Source: Rhodanobacter sp. (GTDB taxonomy: Bacteria; Pseudomonadota; Gammaproteobacteria; Xanthomonadales; Rhodanobacteraceae). From it: 64,000 nucleotides of DNA. Below the pieces are notes generated by a model, which was not told the DNA's origin, did no database searches, and worked only from the letters and a program-made list of their open reading frames with translations. The translations under genes were made by a program, and so were the position numbers. Location: positions 6,233 to 70,232 of the forward strand of contig JBDTEG010000013.1 in assembly GCA_039922695.1 (NCBI GenBank), read 5' to 3'. Positions 36,680 to 46,278 of this stretch are shown one piece after another (within the stretch, counting starts at the first letter, position 1; every line of letters begins with the position of its first letter).

Positions 36680-38077
36680 TCATCCCGCCAACTGCACCAG
36701 CACCCGATGCCAGAATTCCAGCCCCGCTTCGACTTCCGAAGCAGGCAGCTTCTCGTTGAGTCCATGGGCGAAGGTATCGTCGGGTTTGGTGAAGGCGGCA
36801 TCGATGCCGTAGCTGGGGACGCCGGCGTTGCGGAAGTACATGCTGTCGGAGGCGCCGGCGGACATGCCGGGGACGATTTCCACGCCTGGGAAGCGGTGGT
36901 GGACGGCGGCCGTGACGGCGGCGATCACGTCCTTGCGCAGGGGTGAGGCGGGGCTGGCCACTGGCGGTGGCGGTTGCACGGTGACGGTGGCGGACTTGTC
37001 GGCAACCACCTTGATCAGGGTGTCGCGCACGCTGTCGACCGAGGTGCCGGGGAAGATCCTGCAGTTGATGTTGACGGTGGCGCTCTGCGGCAGCGCGTTG
37101 AGCGCGTGGCCGCCGTTGAGCATGGTGGCCACGCAGGTGGTGCGGATTTGGCCGACGTAGGCTGGGTCGGCGGAAATGGTGGCGGCGGCCGCGGCATCGT
37201 CCGGGTGAGCGGCGAATTGGGTCATCGCCGCGCCCATCGGACCAGGCATGTGGGCGCCCAGCGCACGCAGCGAGGCGAGGGTGATCTCGTTGCTCATGGG
37301 CGGAAACTGGTAGCCGGCGACGCGATCAAGGATGCGCGCCAGCCGATAGATGGCGTTGTCGTTGTTCGGTTCACTGGAGTGGCCGCCGGCTGAAGTCAGG
37401 CCGATCTGGAAGTCCGCATAAGTCTTTTCGGCGGCCTGGATTTGGTACAGCACCGGTTTGCCGGTGGTGGCGTCCAGCGTGCCGCCGCCAGCGTCGGCGT
37501 TGAGCAGGAACTCGGCGTCGTGATAGCGCTTCGCCAGCTCGCGGGTGGAGGCCATCGCGGTCTCCTCGTCCCCGGACAGCAGCAGGATCAGGTCGTGACG
37601 TGGCTTGAAGCCTTCGTGCTTGAGCCGAATCAGCGTCTCCACCAGCACCACCACCGCGGTCTTCATGTCGGCGCTGCCGCGGCCATACATATAGCCGTTC
37701 TCCTCGATCAGGGTGAACGGGTCGCGCGTCCAGTCCTTGCGATTGGCTGCCACCACGTCCATGTGCCCGGACAGCAGGATCGGCTTGCCCTCGCCGGTGC
37801 CGCGGTAGCGCGCCACCAGGGCGGCCGTCTCGCCCACAGGAATGATCTGGACATCGTCGGCCGCGAAACCGCCGGCCTTCAACTTGTCGGCCAGATACGC
37901 GGCCAGCACCGGCACCTGGTGCTGGCCCTCGACCGTGTGGATGCCTATCGCATGCTTGAGCATGGCCATGGTGTCGGGCAGCGCGTCGGCGCTGCTGCCG
38001 GCTTTCGCCATTCCGATGCCGGCGCAAAAGACCAGGGTGGCTGCCGTGGCGGAGCCGATGGCTCGTGCTGCTTTCAT
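36680..38077 (-). CDS. M20/M25/M40 family metallopeptidase (secreted)
   Basis: Signal peptide; GHMDVV, GRGSADMK, GDEE, GGHSS, AHGLNE. Confidence 0.9.
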   Translation of the reverse strand: MKAARAIGSATAATLVFCAGIGMAKAGSSADALPDTMAMLKHAIGIHTVEGQHQVPVLAAYLADKLKAGGFAADDVQIIPVGETAALVARYRGTGEGKPILLSGHMDVVAANRKDWTRDPFTLIEENGYMYGRGSADMKTAVVVLVETLIRLKHEGFKPRHDLILLLSGDEETAMASTRELAKRYHDAEFLLNADAGGGTLDATTGKPVLYQIQAAEKTYADFQIGLTSAGGHSSEPNNDNAIYRLARILDRVAGYQFPPMSNEITLASLRALGAHMPGPMGAAMTQFAAHPDDAAAAATISADPAYVGQIRTTCVATMLNGGHALNALPQSATVNINCRIFPGTSVDSVRDTLIKVVADKSATVTVQPPPPVASPASPLRKDVIAAVTAAVHHRFPGVEIVPGMSAGASDSMYFRNAGVPSYGIDAAFTKPDDTFAHGLNEKLPASEVEAGLEFWHRVLVQLAG

Positions 38078-38225
38078 TTGAATTTCCCTGTGCATGGTTT
38101 TGGCGATGCCCGATTATGCGCGGCGGATCGCTCGCTTGCATCTGCCTGATCGGCCTCCGCCGGCTTGCTCCGCCAGCGTGTTAATCTTGCCGCCGCGCTG
38201 TTGGCGATGCCGTCAGCGCGATAAC

Positions 38226-38330
38226 CCCTGGGGAGTAGCCTGCCTCGTTGCGACGAGGCGTATTCGTCAACACGCTCAGGTTATCCTGCCGTGGCGAAGA
38301 CACCGATCACGGCTGGCGAGACCAGCGGCT
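38226..38330 (+). ncRNA. yybP-ykoY (Mn2+) riboswitch
   Basis: GGGGAGTAGC ... CGTCAACAC ... GTGGCG ... GGCGAGACC core in the mntP leader. Confidence 0.85.
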
Positions 38331-38397
38331 GACGACGCCACGGCGGTGGGGCACGTCGTCGCGCTGTGGCGTCCAGCCCCGTCGTTCGAGACCACGC

Positions 38398-38964
38398 ATG
38401 AATCCTCTTTCCATACTGTTGCTCGGCTTCGCCATGTCCGCGGACGCGTTCGCGGCGGCGATCGGCAAGGGCGCGGCGATGACTCGTCCACGGCTCGGCC
38501 AGGCGCTGCGCGCCGGCCTGATCTTCGGCGTGATCGAGGCAATCACCCCGGTCATTGGCTGGTTGCTGGGCAAGGGTGCCTCGCATTACATCGAAGTCTG
38601 GGACCACTGGGTAGCGTTTGTTTTGCTGCTGGGGCTCGGCCTGCACATGGTCTGGAACGGGGTGAAGCCGGAGTCGGACGAGGTGTTCGACGAGGCGAAG
38701 AGGCACGGCTTTGTTGGCCTCGCGCTCACCGGTCTTTCCACCAGCATCGACGCACTGGCCGTAGGCGTGGGCCTGGCCTTCGTCGACACGCCGATTGTGG
38801 TGGTCGCGGTGGTGATCGGCCTGTGCACCTTCAGCATGGTCACCTTGGGCGTCATGCTCGGTCGCGTGCTCGGCGCGATGGTCGGCAGGCGCGCGGAAGT
38901 GATCGGCGGAATCACCCTGATCGGGGTGGGCGCGGCGATCGTGTACGAACATCTGTCGAGATGA
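38398..38964 (+). CDS. mntP: manganese efflux pump
   Basis: [29 protein letters not shown]; preceded by the yybP-ykoY riboswitch. Confidence 0.93.
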
Positions 38965-39584: not shown

Positions 39585-40304
39585 TCAGGTGCCTTGATTC
39601 GTCGTGCCGGATTCCAGAAACCGGTAGCCCACGCCCGGCTCGGTCTTCAGCCAGCGCGGTGCGCCGGGATCGTCGCCCAGCTTCTGGCGCAGGCGACCCA
39701 GCACAATGCGCAGGTAGTGCGTATCTTGCACATGCGTGGCGCCCCACACCTCGCGCAGCAATTGTTGCTGGCTGACCACGCGGCCGGCATGGCGCAGCAG
39801 CAGGGCTAGCACGGCGTATTCCTTGCGCGTGAGCGCAACCCCGTGGCCGTCGAGGCTCACTTCGCGACGGATCAGGTCCACGCGCAGCCTGCCGTCGTCG
39901 TAAAGCGGTGGCACGTCGGCGGGACCGGTGGAGGGGTGATGGCGCAGCAGCGCGCGCAGCCGCGCCATCAGTTCCTGCATGCCGAATGGCTTGGTCACAT
40001 AATCGTTGGCGCCGTTGTCGAGCGCACGCACCTTCTCGCTCTCGGCGCTGCGTACGGACAGCATCAGCACCGGTACCGCGCTCCACTGGCGCAGTTCGGC
40101 CAGCACCTCGTGGCCTTCGCGGTCGGGCAGGCCGAGATCGAGGATGACCAGATCCGGCGATTGCGTGGCGGCAAGCGCAAGTCCCTCGGCGGCGTTGGCC
40201 GCCTGCAGCACCTGATAACCTTCCGCGCGCAGGCCGATGTCGAGGAAGCGACGGATCTGCATCTCGTCATCGATCACCAGCACGCGTGGCGCGGAAGTAT
40301 TCAA
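39585..40304 (-). CDS. kdpE: KdpE-type response regulator
   Basis: PDLVILDLGLPD, GANDYVTKPFG, LLREVWG, HYLRIVLGRLRQKLGDDPGAPRW, TEPGVGYR. Confidence 0.88.
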   Translation of the reverse strand: MNTSAPRVLVIDDEMQIRRFLDIGLRAEGYQVLQAANAAEGLALAATQSPDLVILDLGLPDREGHEVLAELRQWSAVPVLMLSVRSAESEKVRALDNGANDYVTKPFGMQELMARLRALLRHHPSTGPADVPPLYDDGRLRVDLIRREVSLDGHGVALTRKEYAVLALLLRHAGRVVSQQQLLREVWGATHVQDTHYLRIVLGRLRQKLGDDPGAPRWLKTEPGVGYRFLESGTTNQGT

Positions 40305-41752
40305 GCGGTCGTCTCCGGTGCCGGTGGCAGCGGCAGGATGATGCGGATGGTGGTACCGGCGCCATCACGTGGCAAGGCCTCCACCGAGCCTCCGTGTGCG
40401 CCAATCATCCCGCGGCAGATGGACAGGCCCAGGCCGGTGCCCTTGTTGCCGCCGTCGCCTCGCGAGACCGAGTAGAACATGTCGAAGATGCGCGCGCGCT
40501 CGTCGGGTGGAATGCCCGGGCCGCGATCGATCACGTCGATCTGCAGCAGTGCGCCTCGCAAGCTCAGCTCGATTCGCACGGCCTCGCCGGGCGGCGAAAA
40601 ATGTGCGGCGTTTTCCAGCACGTTGAACAGCGCCTGTTCGATCAGCGCCGGGTGCACGTAGAGCAGCACGGTGTCGCGTGGCAGCGCCGTCTGCAGTACC
40701 AGCTCCGGGAAGAACCGGCGCAGACGATCGGTGGCGGCGACCACCACTTCGGTGGCGTCGACCCAGTCGCGGTGCAGCTGCAGCGTCCCGTGCCCGAGCC
40801 GGGTCATGTCGAGCAGGTTCTGGATGTAGCGGTCCAGACGTTGACCTTCGTGCAGGATCGCCTGTAGCAGTTCCTGCCGCTCATCGCGCGGCAGTTGCAT
40901 CTCGTACACGGCCAGGGTGTCTGCGGCACCGATCATCGAGGCCAGCGGCGAGCGCAGGTCGTGCGATACGGACGAGAGCAAGGCATTGCGCAGGCGTTCG
41001 GTTTCGCCCTGCACGCGAGCCTGCTCCAGTTCCTCGGCCAGCCGGGCCCGGTCCAGCGCGAGTGCGATATCCTGCCCCATGGCGTGCGCGAGTTCGCACT
41101 TGTCATGGTCGTGGACAGCCGCTGTATCGGGCGGAAACACGATCACGCCGTGCTGGTGCGTGCCGACAACCAGCGGAATGACCCACGCGCCGGATGGGTC
41201 CGCGCCATCACCATCGCGCGCGGCGGTTGCGGAGGCGCTCGGGCCTTCGTCCCGCACTTCCACCTGTGCATCCATGGCTTGTCGCAAGGTCAGCGTGGCG
41301 ACTTTGCGAATGCTCGCTGCTTCGGTGGCGGTAGCCAGTTGCTTGCCGAGCTGGAGCAAGGTGCGCGCGCGTATTTGCGCTGCCCGCAGCGAGGCCACCT
41401 GGCTGGAAAGCCGGGTGGCCATGCGACTGCAGACCAGGGCGACGACCAGGAACAGCCCGATCGCCAGCACATCGTCGACACTGTCGATGGCCAGCGTGTG
41501 CCGCGGTCGGGTGAAGAAGAAATTGTCGCCGAGGAAACACAGCACGGCCGTATAAACCGCCACGGTCATGCGCTTGCGCACAGCAACCGCCAGCACGGCG
41601 GTCAACAGGATCAGTGACAGGTTGGCAGCCGAGAAATAGTGGTCGGCGGCGAAAGCGACCGCGAAGGCCAGCAGCACCACGGCGGTGGCAAAAAGGTAAT
41701 CGCCCGCATGGGAGCGCAGGACTCGCGCAACGGTGGACGCCCGGTTACGCAT
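40301..41752 (-). CDS. kdpD: KdpD-like sensor kinase lacking the N-terminal KdpD/USP domains
   Basis: 4-TM DUF4118-like block (NFFFTRPRHTLAI), GAF-like segment, LLSSVSHDLRSPL, GTGLGLSIC; only about 483 aa. Confidence 0.75.
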   Translation of the reverse strand: MRNRASTVARVLRSHAGDYLFATAVVLLAFAVAFAADHYFSAANLSLILLTAVLAVAVRKRMTVAVYTAVLCFLGDNFFFTRPRHTLAIDSVDDVLAIGLFLVVALVCSRMATRLSSQVASLRAAQIRARTLLQLGKQLATATEAASIRKVATLTLRQAMDAQVEVRDEGPSASATAARDGDGADPSGAWVIPLVVGTHQHGVIVFPPDTAAVHDHDKCELAHAMGQDIALALDRARLAEELEQARVQGETERLRNALLSSVSHDLRSPLASMIGAADTLAVYEMQLPRDERQELLQAILHEGQRLDRYIQNLLDMTRLGHGTLQLHRDWVDATEVVVAATDRLRRFFPELVLQTALPRDTVLLYVHPALIEQALFNVLENAAHFSPPGEAVRIELSLRGALLQIDVIDRGPGIPPDERARIFDMFYSVSRGDGGNKGTGLGLSICRGMIGAHGGSVEALPRDGAGTTIRIILPLPPAPETTA

Positions 41753-41865
41753 GCATGGGCGCCTCCGGCGCTCCGTGCTTGCGGCAGTCGCCACGCTGCC
41801 GTACCCGCGTGCCGTCCGGGCGCCCTTTCAATCGAGGCCTGGTGCCTGGCATGGCTGGTCTGGTT

Positions 41866-43851
41866 TCATATCTCGACCTCCGATCCCAGTTCAATGCGCC
41901 GGTTGCCGGGAATCTGGAAGAAGGCGGTGGCGGAGAGCGCATTGTGCGCCATGAAGGCGAACAGGCGGTCACGCCACAATGCCATGCCATGCCGTTGCTT
42001 GCCGGCCACCACGGTCTCGCGCGAGAGAAAGAAGGTGGTGTCCATCATGTCGAACGGCAGCCCGTCGCGGCCGCACTTTGCCAACCGCGATGGTACATCG
42101 GGATCTTCGCCGAAGCCGAAGCGCAATCGCAACCGGATGAAACCCTCGCCCAGCGTCGACCACTCGCATTGCTCGCCCGGTTCGGCCAGCGGAGTATCAA
42201 GCGTCTCCACAGTCAGCAACACGTTGCGCTCATGCAGCACCTTGTTGTGCTTGAGGTTGTGCAGCAGGGAGCTCGGGATGGCATCCGCATTGGCGGTGAG
42301 GAAGACGGCAGTGCCGGCCACCCGCGTCAGGGGATAGTCAGCCAGGTTCAGGATGAACGGCGCCAGCGCCAGGCCACCTTGCTGGATCTCGCGCACGACC
42401 AGCTCGCGTCCACGTCGCCATGTGGTCATTGCCACGAACACGCACAGGCCCAGCGCCAGTGGAAACCAGCCGCCATGCGCCACCTTGACCAGGTTCGCGC
42501 TGAAGAAGCCCAGATCCACGCTGAGCAGGAAGGCACCGGTGGCAAGTACGGCCGGCAGACTCCAGTGCCACTGGAAGCGTGCCACCACCAGGGCCAGCAA
42601 GGTGGTGGTGACCATGGTGCCGGTGACCGCTATGCCATAGGCCGCGCCGAGGTTGTCCGACGAGCGGAAGCCCAGTACGGCCGCCACGATGAGGATCATC
42701 AGGATCCAGTTGATCCATGGCACGAAGATCTGCCCGGACATCTCGTGCGAGGTGTGCACGACGCGCATGCGCGGCATGTAGCCCAGCTGCATCGCCTCGC
42801 GGGTCATCGAGAATGCGCCGGAGATGACCGCTTGCGAGGCGATCACCGTGGCCGCGGTGGCCAGGGCGATCATCGGATACAGCATGAAGCGTGGCACCAG
42901 GTGATAGAACGGATTGGCCACGGCGGCGGGATCCTGCAGGACCTGCGCACCCTGGCCGAAGTAATTCAGCACCAGTGCCGGCAACACGAAGTTGAACCAT
43001 GCCAGCTGGATCGGACGCCGGCCGAAGTGTCCCATGTCCGCATACAGCGCCTCGGTGCCCGTGACGGCGAGCACCACCGCGCCCAGCGCGAAGAACGCCT
43101 CGGCATGGTTGTGCAGGAAGAAAGCCACGCCATAGGTGGGGCTGATCGCCAGCAGCACTGCGGGGTGTCGCGCGATGCCCAACACGCCCAGGCCGGCGAT
43201 GGTGATGAACCAGACCGCGCAAACCGGGCCGAACAAGGCACCGATCTGGCTGGTTCCGCGCTTCTGCAGCCAGCAGAGCGCGACGATCACGCTGATCGTG
43301 ATCGGCACCACCCACCGTTGCAGATCGGGTGCCGCCACCTGCAGGCCCTCGACTGCCGACAGGACCGAGATTGCCGGCGTGATCACGCCGTCGCCGTAGA
43401 ACAGTGCCGCGCCGAACAGACCGAGCACGATGATGGTCAGGCGCAGCCGCGGTATGTGACGGGCGCTGCGCTGGGCCAACGCCAGCAGCGCCATGATGCC
43501 GCCCTCGCCCTTGTTGTCGGCGCGCATGATGAAGAGCAGGTACTTGATCGACACCACGATGATCAGCGACCAGAAGATCAGGCTCAGCGCGCCGAGCACG
43601 TTTACCGGCGTCGCCGCCATGCCGTGGTCGCCGAACACCTCCTTGAGCGTATACAGCGGGCTGGTGCCGATATCGCCGTAAACCACGCCCACGGCGCCAA
43701 GGGCAAGGGTGGCCAGCCGCCGCGATGGCAGCTTCGTGGTCACCTCGGTCCGCGGAACGTCAGCATCGATTGTTCGGCCGCCGACGGGGGAACGAGGTGG
43801 GTCGCCGGCGCTGGCGCGCGGATACTGACTGCCAAAAAACATCGCCGACAC
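41866..43851 (-). CDS. kup: KUP/HAK/KT potassium transporter
   Basis: GVVYGDIGTSPLY, DNKGEGG, GTEALYADMGHFG, AYGIAVTG; true start may be the GTG at 43743. Confidence 0.96.
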   Translation of the reverse strand: MSAMFFGSQYPRASAGDPPRSPVGGRTIDADVPRTEVTTKLPSRRLATLALGAVGVVYGDIGTSPLYTLKEVFGDHGMAATPVNVLGALSLIFWSLIIVVSIKYLLFIMRADNKGEGGIMALLALAQRSARHIPRLRLTIIVLGLFGAALFYGDGVITPAISVLSAVEGLQVAAPDLQRWVVPITISVIVALCWLQKRGTSQIGALFGPVCAVWFITIAGLGVLGIARHPAVLLAISPTYGVAFFLHNHAEAFFALGAVVLAVTGTEALYADMGHFGRRPIQLAWFNFVLPALVLNYFGQGAQVLQDPAAVANPFYHLVPRFMLYPMIALATAATVIASQAVISGAFSMTREAMQLGYMPRMRVVHTSHEMSGQIFVPWINWILMILIVAAVLGFRSSDNLGAAYGIAVTGTMVTTTLLALVVARFQWHWSLPAVLATGAFLLSVDLGFFSANLVKVAHGGWFPLALGLCVFVAMTTWRRGRELVVREIQQGGLALAPFILNLADYPLTRVAGTAVFLTANADAIPSSLLHNLKHNKVLHERNVLLTVETLDTPLAEPGEQCEWSTLGEGFIRLRLRFGFGEDPDVPSRLAKCGRDGLPFDMMDTTFFLSRETVVAGKQRHGMALWRDRLFAFMAHNALSATAFFQIPGNRRIELGSEVEI

Positions 43852-43918
43852 CTGGAATGAATCAGACGTGCATTCTGGGTATCAAGTCGTAATGGCGGCA
43901 TAGCCGCGCCGGTCTGCA

Positions 43919-43938
43919 GCATAAAATTAACGTAAAAA
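43919..43938 (-). promoter_or_regulatory. putative KdpE binding site upstream of kup
   Basis: Minus strand TTTTTACGTTAATTTTATGC: TTTAC/TTTAT direct repeat with 11-bp period, as in the E. coli kdpFABC KdpE site; AT-rich island in GC-rich DNA. Confidence 0.65.
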
Positions 43939-44064
43939 TTGTCCTCGACACCGGCCAGACGGATCGCCGATTGATGGAAAGGTCAGGGGAGCCTTTCGGC
44001 TTCCATTCACAGTTTCCCGCACCGGACGCCGCGCTTGCCGTCATCCCGTGGCTTCGCCATGGAC

Positions 44065-44093
44065 AAAAAAGCCCGGGACACGAATCCCGGGCC
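44065..44093 (-). terminator. intrinsic terminator of the EF-G gene
   Basis: GCCCGGGA-TTCGTG-TCCCGGGC stem-loop followed by T6 on the minus strand, 56 nt after the stop. Confidence 0.85.
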
Positions 44094-44148
44094 TTTCCAT
44101 CGGCGCCGACTGCAGACAGTCCGCGTCAATGAGGAGGCAGGGCAGGGC

Positions 44149-46278
44149 CTACTTCGACTCCTTCTCCATCAGCTTCTCGACCATGCTGGCCGGCACTTCC
44201 TCGTAGTGATCGAAGATCATCGAATAGTTGCCGCGCCCGCTGGTGGCCGAGCGCAGGAAGTTGATGTAGCCGAACATTTCGGACAGCGGGACGAAGCCTT
44301 GCACGAAGGCCGAGATGCCTTTCTGGCCCTGGTCGGTGATCTGCCCACGACGACGGTTGATGTCGCCGATGATGTCGCCGAGATAGGTCGCCTCGGTGAC
44401 CACTTCCAGCGCCATGATCGGCTCCAGCAGCTTCGGCCTGGACAGCCTCTGCGCTTCGCGGAAGCACGCGCGGCCCGCGATTTCGAAGGCCAGTGCCGAG
44501 GAGTCGACGTCGTGGTACTTGCCATCGATCAGGCGCGCCTTGAAGTCGAGTACTTCGTAGCCGGCGACCTGACCCTGGCGCGACTCCACCGTGACGGCAT
44601 GTTCGACCGACGGGATGTACTCGCGTGGCACGCGGCCACCCACCACTTCGTCGGAAAACACCACGCCGGAGCCCGGTTCGCCTGGCTCGAAGATCATCTT
44701 CACTTCGGCGAACTGGCCCGAGCCGCCGGACTGCTTCTTGTGCGTGTAGGTGTGCTCGACGGTCTGGCCGAACGCTTCGCGGAAGCTGACCTTGGGCTTG
44801 CCCATGTTCGCTTCCACGCCCAGTTCGCTGCGCATGCGGTCGATGGTGATTTCCAGATGCAGTTCGCCCATGCCCTTGAGCACGGTCTGCCCAGTCTCCT
44901 GGTCCACTTCCATGCGCAGAGACGGGTCGGCCTTGACCATCTTGTAGAGCGCGGTGGACAGCTTGTCGACGTCGTTGCGGCTCTTCGGCTCGACCGACAC
45001 GCTGATGACGGGGTCCGGAAAGCGCATGCGCTCGAGCAGGGCCGGATGGTTCGGGTCGGACAGGGAATCGCCGGTCTCCGTATCCTTCATCGACACGAAG
45101 GCGCAGATGTCGCCGGCGCGCACTTCGTCGATCTCGCGGGTGTGGTCGGCCTGCACCTCGACGATGCGGCCCACGCGCTCCTTCTTGCCGCGGGTGACGT
45201 TCTGCAGGGTGTCGCCCTTCTTGATCACGCCCGAATAAATGCGGCAGAAGGTCAGCGTGCCGAACTGGTCGTTGATCACCTTGAACGCCAGCGCGCGTGC
45301 CGGTGCATCGTCGGTGACTTCCTGCTCGCCGATGATGTTGCCGTCCTCGTCGACCATCGAGATACCACCGTTCTCGCCGGGGTAGGGCATGTAATCCACG
45401 ACGGCATCAAGCAACTGCTGCACGCCCTTGTTCTTGTACGACGAGCCGCAGAACACGGGCACCAGCTTGCCGCTGACGCAGCCCTTGCGGATGCATTTCT
45501 TCAACATGTCCGGATCATGCTCGCCGGTCTCGATGAGGCGCCCGAACGCGTCGTCGTCCATCGCCAGCGCGGTCTCCAGCATTTCCTCACGCAGCGTGGG
45601 CAGTTGCGCGAGCCATTCGTTGTCGGCAACGGACGCAAATTTCAGCCGGTCCTTGGCCTCCTCGAAGGACACGGTTTCCCACTTGCTGTCCTTGTCGTCG
45701 GACTGCCAGATGTAGGCCACGTTCGCGACCAGGTCGGCCATGCCGCAAAATTCGTCGCTGCTCCCCAACGGAATCTGGCACAGCAGGGCCGGCGCATTGA
45801 GGCGCTCGCGTATGCCCTTCACGCAGTGGCCGAAATTGGCGCCAATGCGGTCCATCTTGTTGATGTAGCACATGCGTGGCACGTGATACTGGTCGGCCAG
45901 GCGCCAGTTGGTCTCGGTCTGCGGCTCCACTCCGGCGACGCCGTCGAACACCACCACGGCGCCGTCAAGCACGCGCAGCGACCGATTCACCTCGATGGTG
46001 AAGTCGACGTGTCCCGGCGTGTCGATCACGTTGATCTGGTGTCCCTTCCACTCGGTCGACACCGCAGCAGACTGGATCGTGATGCCGCGCTTGCGCTCCT
46101 GCTCCATGTAGTCGGTGGTCGTGGAGCCCTTGCCTTCCTTGGTGTCGTGCACGTCGACAATCTGGTGTTTGCGGCCGGTGTAATACAGTACGCGCTCGGT
46201 GGTGGTCGTCTTGCCGGCATCAATGTGCGCGATGATGCCGACGTTGCGGTAGAGCTTCAGGGGTTTCTGGCGGGCCAC
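44149..46278 (-). CDS. fusA: elongation factor G paralog (not in the str operon)
   Basis: AHIDAGKTT, RGITI, DTPGHVDF, NKMD, GMGELHLEI, GGSGQFA, YHDVDSS; GTG start; no rpsL/rpsG/tuf neighbours. Confidence 0.93.
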   Translation of the reverse strand: MARQKPLKLYRNVGIIAHIDAGKTTTTERVLYYTGRKHQIVDVHDTKEGKGSTTTDYMEQERKRGITIQSAAVSTEWKGHQINVIDTPGHVDFTIEVNRSLRVLDGAVVVFDGVAGVEPQTETNWRLADQYHVPRMCYINKMDRIGANFGHCVKGIRERLNAPALLCQIPLGSSDEFCGMADLVANVAYIWQSDDKDSKWETVSFEEAKDRLKFASVADNEWLAQLPTLREEMLETALAMDDDAFGRLIETGEHDPDMLKKCIRKGCVSGKLVPVFCGSSYKNKGVQQLLDAVVDYMPYPGENGGISMVDEDGNIIGEQEVTDDAPARALAFKVINDQFGTLTFCRIYSGVIKKGDTLQNVTRGKKERVGRIVEVQADHTREIDEVRAGDICAFVSMKDTETGDSLSDPNHPALLERMRFPDPVISVSVEPKSRNDVDKLSTALYKMVKADPSLRMEVDQETGQTVLKGMGELHLEITIDRMRSELGVEANMGKPKVSFREAFGQTVEHTYTHKKQSGGSGQFAEVKMIFEPGEPGSGVVFSDEVVGGRVPREYIPSVEHAVTVESRQGQVAGYEVLDFKARLIDGKYHDVDSSALAFEIAGRACFREAQRLSRPKLLEPIMALEVVTEATYLGDIIGDINRRRGQITDQGQKGISAFVQGFVPLSEMFGYINFLRSATSGRGNYSMIFDHYEEVPASMVEKLMEKESK

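Follow-up and report, generated by a model that had tools for sequence, protein, structure and literature searches.

The K+ importers Kup and Trk are textbook constitutive systems, and the Kdp pump is regarded as essentially the sole target of the regulator KdpE. We analyzed a 64-kb stretch of Rhodanobacter sp. DNA (contig JBDTEG010000013.1, here C13, positions 6233-70232; the whole stretch is called the window) in which a kup gene, a gene for a short KdpD-like kinase (KdpD') and kdpE are three co-directional open reading frames (ORFs) on the minus strand. Coordinates are window positions unless C13 is named. The longest kup ORF, of 661 amino acids (aa), spans 41866-43851, the kinase gene (497 aa) spans 40301-41794, and kdpE, encoding an OmpR-type regulator, lies at 39585-40304; the kinase stop and the kdpE start share 4 bases, and no kdpFABC was found within the cluster. 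An earlier sequence-only reading had described this arrangement, and the ORFs and domain searches bear it out. Its larger proposal, that a Kdp-type system has been re-aimed at kup as an inducible K+ uptake module, is supported by comparison of promoters, by phylogeny and by Kdp-less genomes. The possible relevance to acid tolerance that it also raised is conjectural. We consider it likely that kup-kdpD'-kdpE is a three-gene operon with a kdp-type, KdpE-dependent promoter induced at K+ limitation, and Kup is very probably switched on by low K+ in this Rhodanobacter lineage.

In Escherichia coli, the KdpE site consists of 6-bp half-sites, TTTATA and TTTACA, with a 5-bp spacer between them, and residues R193, R200 and T215 of KdpE are required for binding them (PMC3264566). 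The locus studied here resembles the E. coli KdpD/KdpE-kdpFABC system in its regulator family, in the half-site pattern and spacing, in the DNA-contact residues of the regulator, in having an activator site upstream of a promoter without a -35 consensus, and in placing the regulator genes at the 3' end of the operon. It differs in having as its target a KUP-family secondary carrier instead of a P-type pump, in a kinase without KdpD-N and Usp, and in a second conserved box that covers the -35 region. KdpD-N is an atypical serine kinase that phosphorylates KdpB and so closes the pump at high K+, while the proposed K+-sensing sites of E. coli KdpD lie in its transmembrane (TM) and GAF domains (PMC11018627). 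The same work (Silberberg et al. 2024, PMC11018627) describes split KdpDs from Kdp-bearing species, in which TM/GAF/DHpCA chains always occur alongside a separate KdpD/Usp serine-kinase chain. Those proteins share with ours the domain set TM, GAF, DHp and CA, and their histidine kinase chain is thought to be K+-controlled. However, they were surveyed only together with annotated Kdp(F)ABC, whereas the kinase described here is tied to kup, no KdpD-N was found in the Kdp-less genomes checked, and the short form derives recently from the full-length KdpDs of one bacterial family, among which it is nested.

Other bacteria offer points of comparison on the transporter side. The KdpE of Sinorhizobium fredii was found to bind the promoter of kdpFABC, whereas those of kup and trkA were not bound, and kup expression falls at low K+ in that species (PMC9239096). 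In the accessible portion of a study of Caulobacter crescentus (10.1101/2023.07.05.547876), the top KdpE target in chromatin immunoprecipitation is kdp, and kup is not mentioned there among the targets. Both organisms have Kup and Kdp and have had their KdpE regulon examined; unlike in them, the Rhodanobacter kup paralog has a kdp-type promoter. The kup gene of Geobacter sulfurreducens (GSU2485) lies 3' of kdpABCDE and is under a riboswitch (PMC2700814). As in our locus, kup is there physically joined to kdp regulatory genes and predicted to be regulated, but it is assigned to riboswitch control and the neighboring kinase is the ordinary member of a kdpABCDE cluster, whereas we detected no riboswitch and predict a KdpE box. 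KdpE is also discussed, and listed among single-target regulators, in a paper that applied genomic SELEX (systematic evolution of ligands by exponential enrichment) to E. coli single-target regulators (PMC5934670). Our literature search, which covered KdpE control of kup or trk and K+ uptake in Rhodanobacter, returned nothing that describes this module or KdpE-box control of a kup or trkH operon, which is not proof of absence. The locus appears to be a well-supported natural counter-example both to constitutive Kup and to single-target KdpE.

The kup promoter

Upstream of kup lies a predicted KdpE dimer site, box 1 (43920-43936, minus strand; TTTACG-TTAAT-TTTATG, TTTACGTTAATTTTATG), with two half-sites in an 11-bp register at about -59 to -75 from the predicted transcription start. 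The sequence-only reading had pointed to two TTTAY repeats 11 bp apart within a 20-mer, which we place at 43919-43938 on the minus strand, and had likened them to the E. coli KdpE site. Both observations hold: the pattern TTTAYG-N5-TTTAYG occurs once in the window, at box 1, and in none of 100 shuffled sequences, and its half-sites and spacing match those of E. coli (PMC3264566). A looser form of the box pattern has 12 sites in the 3.7-Mb assembly, and the kup site alone among them also has a second box. This box 2 (43888-43904, minus strand; GCTATGCCGCCATTACG) is conserved, overlies the -35 region and is in helical phase with box 1 (+33/+44). Promoters of kup have the consensus GCTATgCCG.T.TTACG and those of kdp have CGCTACCCCgTTCTTATgCG, with the spacing unchanged between the two classes, and the box is possibly a second, weaker KdpE site. 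Further downstream, a -10-like hexamer, CAGAAT (43872-43877, minus strand), forms a conserved block of alignment columns and is replaced in relatives by TAGAGT, CAGACT or TACAGT. It is accompanied by no -35 consensus, as is expected for an activator-dependent promoter.

Box 1 recurs at every module place examined. Our upstream set comprised the congeners G018, G011, G014 and G007, further Rhodanobacter records and bins, Dyella ginsengisoli LA-4, Fulvimonas yonginensis, Oleiagrimonas soli, three further genomes of the family and family-level bins. All 21 places examined that have a co-directional kup-kinase-kdpE show TTTACG-N5-TTTAYG, or something close to it, ahead of kup, and nearly all of these also have the second box, 16 bp downstream of box 1, and the -10-like hexamer. 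The sequence flanking the promoter elements varies among module loci. Checking motif conservation and synteny in relatives, as had been proposed, favored the prediction, with the box kept in all co-directional module places examined, across at least four named genera. A box was not found, even with the loose pattern, upstream of ten kup genes outside modules, eight of them from seven relatives and two from this assembly.

The closest likeness is to the promoters of the Kdp pump itself. Congeners' kdpF(ABC) promoters read cTTTACGCGTTCTATACG ... CGCTACCCCgTTCTTATgCG ... TACAGT, with TTTACG-N5-TATACG at the position of box 1 in the kdpF promoters of relatives. The kup-module and kdpF promoters align without gaps over about 75 columns, with all elements equally spaced, and we read the kup promoter as a copy of the kdp promoter architecture. 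The kdp loci of Rhodanobacter relatives also hold an extra hydrophobic ORF of about 30 codons (MDFVYLLFLLVLCAAALGFLLICDRLNPRK) between the promoter and kdpF (L027:4440-4700, L030:4080-4330 and others).

We propose that at low K+ the membrane kinase KdpD' would phosphorylate KdpE, its likely signal being K+ itself, since the four TM helices and GAF region that it keeps are the proposed K+-sensing parts of E. coli KdpD (PMC11018627). Phosphorylated KdpE would bind TTTACG-N5-TTTATG some 60-75 bp upstream of the presumed transcription start, perhaps also the phased box 2 over the -35 region, and would recruit RNA polymerase to the -35-less promoter, inducing kup together with its own regulator genes. 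Co-transcription of kup, kdpD' and kdpE as one three-gene operon would give a positive feedback on the regulator genes resembling that of kdpFABCDE. The module may be a single invention of Rhodanobacteraceae, assembled out of parts present in the family, namely a kdp-type promoter, a resident kup paralog and the 3' half of a kdpD with its kdpE.

As the start of kup, GTG 43746 (626 aa, in agreement with orthologs) or ATG 43842 appears the more likely. The leader opens with CTGATYCATTCCAGG, which is conserved in the Rhodanobacter subgroup, and the ATG there begins a short, poorly conserved ORF; the conserved leader start (CTGATTCATTCCAGG) and this ATG together occupy 43840-43865 (minus strand). 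In one congener (G011, locus L039), the upstream frame is 23 codons long and terminates in an ATGA that lies on the start of kup. Here, an in-frame fusion of it to kup (region 43746-43865) gives the 661-aa ORF. No riboswitch or other known RNA was found in the kup leader, the only matches being sub-threshold chance ones over the terminator of the upstream gene.

The kinase, KdpE and Kup

Domain searches of the kinase recovered DUF4118 (PF13493, E 1.4e-20, residues 33-137), HisKA (PF00512) and HATPase_c (PF02518). Read from the translation, four hydrophobic helices occupy residues ~33-126, and the H, N, G1, F and G2 boxes are intact (SHDLRSPL, NVLENA, DRGPG, FDMFY and GTGLGL). The best NCBIfam model is KdpD, aligned over model positions 597-887 of 895; against the full-length KdpD model NF007793, the score is 215.8 bits, with a cut-off of 1123. 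KdpD-N (PF02702) has no match in the kinase, nor anywhere in the assembly, and Usp (PF00582) has none in the kinase. The first ~26 residues show no similarity to KdpD, and residues ~27-497 are 58-65% identical to residues ~400-900 of the full-length KdpDs of relatives. The domain searches thus agree with the earlier description of a 4-TM, GAF-like, HisKA and ATPase protein without KdpD-N and USP, except that the GAF-like region is recognized solely through homology to the GAF region of KdpD: Pfam GAF has no match in this kinase at E <= 0.001, while orthologs do match. A gene caller places the kinase start at ATG 41752, for a product of 483 aa, and many related database clusters fall at ~480-550 aa.

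A maximum-likelihood tree was built for 87 KdpD-type kinases from their C-terminal 470 residues; in it, all 13 short kinases form one clade (SH-aLRT, the Shimodaira-Hasegawa-like approximate likelihood ratio test, 98) nested among the full-length KdpDs of Rhodanobacteraceae. A second tree with more genera recovers the same nested clade (SH-aLRT 98-99 across both trees). Pairwise ratios of nonsynonymous to synonymous substitution rates (dN/dS) are 0.19-0.31 for the kinase. We take the short kinase to be a single, selected derivative of the family KdpD.

The sequence-only reading proposed a minimal sensor that cannot use the ATP and USP inputs of full KdpD. Both domains are indeed missing, but the lost N-terminal part is known for an output, the serine kinase activity on KdpB. 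A KdpD linked to Kup has no KdpB substrate, which would explain the loss of KdpD-N. A kinase that has shed its serine-kinase half and kept its sensing and histidine-kinase half matches the prediction of the tandem-kinase model, and the data fit a module that may have dropped the pump-specific output arm rather than the ATP/Usp input alone. The locus could therefore serve as an evolutionary cross-check of the 2024 model (PMC11018627), in which removal of the pump target is accompanied by disappearance of the serine-kinase half, and it points to a minimal KdpD for dissecting K+ sensing.

The regulator carries PF00072 and PF00486, and its best model is KdpE (NF007820; 248.5 bits versus 186 for the runner-up), with the equivalog cut-off of 325 not reached. 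It is 70-97% identical to the kdpE products of relatives, whose genes stand at the ends of classical kdpFABCDE operons or in short-kinase loci. Its best matches in the PDB include E. coli KdpE (4KNY/4KFC, 1e-67). The equivalents of E. coli R193, R200 and T215 are all kept in an alignment to 6LGQ_D, a sequence that we read as E. coli KdpE behind a 16-residue tag (4KNY scores equally), and the two proteins have nearly identical recognition helices. The assembly holds one kdpE copy, the one beside the short kinase.

Kup matches PF02705 (624 bits) and PF22776 (165 bits) in profile searches (E 1.6e-187), and its score of 594.8 bits against TIGR00794 exceeds the cut-off of 539.6 and places it in the KUP family. 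Against the E. coli-type equivalog NF008015, it scores 769.7 bits, under the cut-off of 883. The Kup tree unites the 15 Kups from co-directional modules in one clade (SH-aLRT 99), with ordinary congener kup genes as its sisters. For kup, pairwise dN/dS is 0.08-0.27, and for kdpE it is 0.06-0.17; all three genes of the module are under purifying selection. The assembly has three kup paralogs. Module-bearing genomes are without the 66-71% Kup type found in most other congeners, so the module kup may have replaced that type or descended from it. Tandem kup pairs occur in several Rhodanobacter genomes (G006:C26:23233-27033, G008:C18:74004-77789 and others).

The Kdp pump and competing explanations

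In the assembly (3.7 Mb, 221 contigs, 90% complete), searches for KdpA, KdpB, KdpC and KdpD-N found none, with only distant P-type ATPases at 26-27% identity. The proposed check for a separate kdpFABC-kdpDE thus came back empty for the pump and KdpD-N, but a second kdpD, of the long type, stands at the end of the contig. Its last 360 codons lie at C13:75115-76195, 4.9 kb past the window end, where the contig end truncates it; a congener's 900-aa KdpD shares 84% identity with the fragment and is grouped with it in the tree. No kdpE was found after it, its N-terminal half is on no other contig, and the contig end matches nothing else in the assembly. Because this long kdpD runs off the contig, kdpFABCD may lie in unassembled sequence, and the absence of Kdp from this genome is not established. 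IS5-like transposase ORFs are present at C13:71.0-72.6 kb.

KdpA and KdpD-N were not found in the complete, module-bearing chromosome NZ_CP170721.1 (Rhodanobacter sp. FW102-FHT14D07) or in the module-bearing G011 (100% complete), and KdpA was not found in the module-bearing G128 and G228 (99-100% complete). In such genomes, which have lost the pump, the module appears to be the only recognizable KdpE target. TrkH was not found in this assembly either, and Rhodanobacter is often without Kdp; inducible K+ uptake in the genus may depend on the module alone. Most sampled Rhodanobacteraceae keep the classical order kdpA-kdpB-(extra gene)-kdpC-kdpD-kdpE. In most kdp operons of the family, the gene between kdpB and kdpC encodes a signal-peptide protein of ~280 aa (MKLRSIAAAAAFLS...; L030:8530-9381, L027:8767-9639) with the look of an outer-membrane porin.

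Both kdpFABC and a short-kinase locus are present in eight genomes. Five of these dual genomes (G007, G008, R. spathiphylli B39, D. ginsengisoli LA-4 and bin 15-68-25) have exactly one kdpE, beside the short kinase, and in all five the long kdpD of the pump operon has no adjacent kdpE. The kdp promoters of G007 and G008 retain the box. The simplest reading of a single kdpE by the short kinase together with a kept box is one regulator, two promoters and two kinases: in dual genomes, a single KdpE probably serves both promoters and takes input from both kinases. Such genomes point to networks in which a long and a short kinase feed one KdpE that controls two transporters. A metagenome hit with a seeming short kinase beside kdpA and kdpC (P0108) was excluded, as it seems to be an ordinary kdp operon broken into fragments. 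Culturable carriers of the module include R. spathiphylli B39, Rhodanobacter sp. FW102-FHT14D07 and Dyella ginsengisoli LA-4.

One relative has lost the transporter from the module. Rhodanobacter sp. B05 (L022/L038) has a clean deletion of ~2.03 kb, equivalent to window positions 42031-44062, which took the promoter and the 5' nine tenths of kup and left ~55 terminal kup codons, the short kinase and kdpE. Elsewhere, B05 retains kdpFABC-kdpD, without a kdpE there.

Several observations weigh against a KdpE-controlled kup operon. The B05 regulators persist without kup, which shows that they have a use independent of it and must have another, weaker promoter; in dual genomes, kdpFABC could be the main reason for keeping the pair. 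A consensus scan of the kup upstream region found no complete sigma-70 promoter, so the -10 element and the start site are guesses. The S. fredii KdpE, which does not bind the kup or trkA promoters, indicates that a link between KdpE and kup is not general. Finally, the short kinase evolves faster than its neighbors (dN/dS ~0.25-0.3), leaving room for a changed signal.

This last point leads to an alternative in which the short kinase answers some other signal, such as low pH, an osmotic upshift or membrane state, and Kup is induced by stress rather than by K+ starvation. The kinase is without two cytoplasmic domains of KdpD, and E. coli KdpD is known to integrate several signals (PMC11018627). 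E. coli Kup has been linked to low-pH hyperosmotic growth, according to a work cited in PMC9239096 (ref. 48), and some Rhodanobacter isolates and bins come from the FW-series wells at Oak Ridge, a highly stressed aquifer (PMC12036129). On the other hand, the TM and GAF parts that were retained are the ones proposed to sense K+ (PMC11018627), at 58-65% identity to the full-length KdpDs of the family, and where both systems are present, that one KdpE would be driving the promoter of the kdp pump as well. We consider a switch of signal unlikely.

Alternatively, the real target of the pair may be a kdpFABC elsewhere, possibly in unassembled sequence, with kup a constitutive neighbor and the box serving only autoregulation of the regulators. 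The long-type kdpD at the contig end, 27 kb away, the eight dual genomes, and the survival of the B05 regulators without kup or box all fit this arrangement. However, the box precedes kup and not the kinase gene, so any KdpE-driven transcript must read through kup, and no strong terminator was found between the two genes, where the weak candidates all lie within coding sequence. Several essentially complete module genomes also lack a detectable KdpA or KdpD-N, and Kup, kinase and promoter have been inherited jointly as one clade. We judge this explanation quite unlikely. That the short kinase is a decaying kdpD remnant, and the cluster a functionless scar of kdp operon loss, is very improbable: the kinase is an N-terminally truncated paralog and kup has been deleted in one relative, but the ORF and all kinase boxes are intact, with dN/dS as given above, which refutes a pseudogene, the promoter is conserved, and the architecture is kept in one clade across at least four named genera and in the many database clusters of similar length.

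Other short-kinase pairs and neighboring genes

We surveyed other short KdpD-type kinases (frames below 690 aa) in a sample of 300 genomes from the order and one of 400 genomes from the class. A second family (G244, locus L153, and metagenome contig L119) has kup divergent from a short kdpD-kdpE, with TTTACG-N5-TTTACG on the kup side. Its Kup comes from a different Kup clade, its kinase groups with the long KdpDs of its own family, and KdpA was not found in G244. In a third family (G151, locus L149), kup is again divergent from the pair, and the box faces the regulator genes.

In other cases the partner is Trk. In family f8, trkH (confirmed by Pfam) is divergent from the pair in four of six loci, in four genomes, the other two contigs ending too near the kinase, and KdpA was not found in the five f8 genomes tested. 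Four genomes from four other gammaproteobacterial families likewise have trkH divergent from the pair. These TrkH-linked loci (L146-L148, L152 and L172-L175) carry TTTAYG-N5-TTTAYG boxes between the divergent genes; in L146-L148 and L173 the boxes stand back to back, and trkA follows trkH in L146 (by Pfam) and L173 (by similarity only). The regulators of the f8 genomes score best as KdpE, and the nine TrkH-linked kinases form one clade with support 100, apparently an old one that extends over at least five families of Gammaproteobacteria.

Placing every short kinase together in one clade is rejected (log-likelihood difference 177, approximately unbiased (AU) test p 5e-68), for a group that was defined after viewing the tree; the trees behind the AU test came from quick searches and have some long branches. 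We regard this as evidence for at least three separate short-kinase lineages, namely the co-directional Kup form of Rhodanobacteraceae, the divergent Kup form of the second family, and the TrkH(-TrkA) form. A TM-GAF-histidine kinase KdpD together with KdpE and its box may thus be a portable low-K+ switch, repeatedly re-attached to secondary K+ importers without the serine-kinase domain and often with loss of the pump, a generalization that we rate about as likely as not. If it is true, "constitutive" Kup and Trk would be K+-inducible in many bacteria, and natural minimal KdpDs would offer a clean system for studying K+ sensing by KdpD.

The neighbor upstream of the Rhodanobacter kup is a stand-alone EF-G paralog (44149-46278, minus strand; TIGR00484, 887 bits), which precedes the module in loci L034-L039, a synteny kept across the Rhodanobacter subgroup. 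This EF-G gene is not adjacent to rpsL, rpsG or tuf and has its own intrinsic terminator (44062-44095, minus strand), a hairpin GGCCCGGGA...TCCCGGGCC followed by T6, with a fold of -35.2 kcal/mol and a z of -3.6. The terminator insulates kup from transcription coming from upstream, and the intergenic region that follows, before kup, is 210-300 bp long. Downstream of kdpE are an MntP-type manganese efflux gene (38248-38964, plus strand) and an M20 peptidase gene (36680-38095, minus strand), both of which also follow the module in Rhodanobacter sp. B05.

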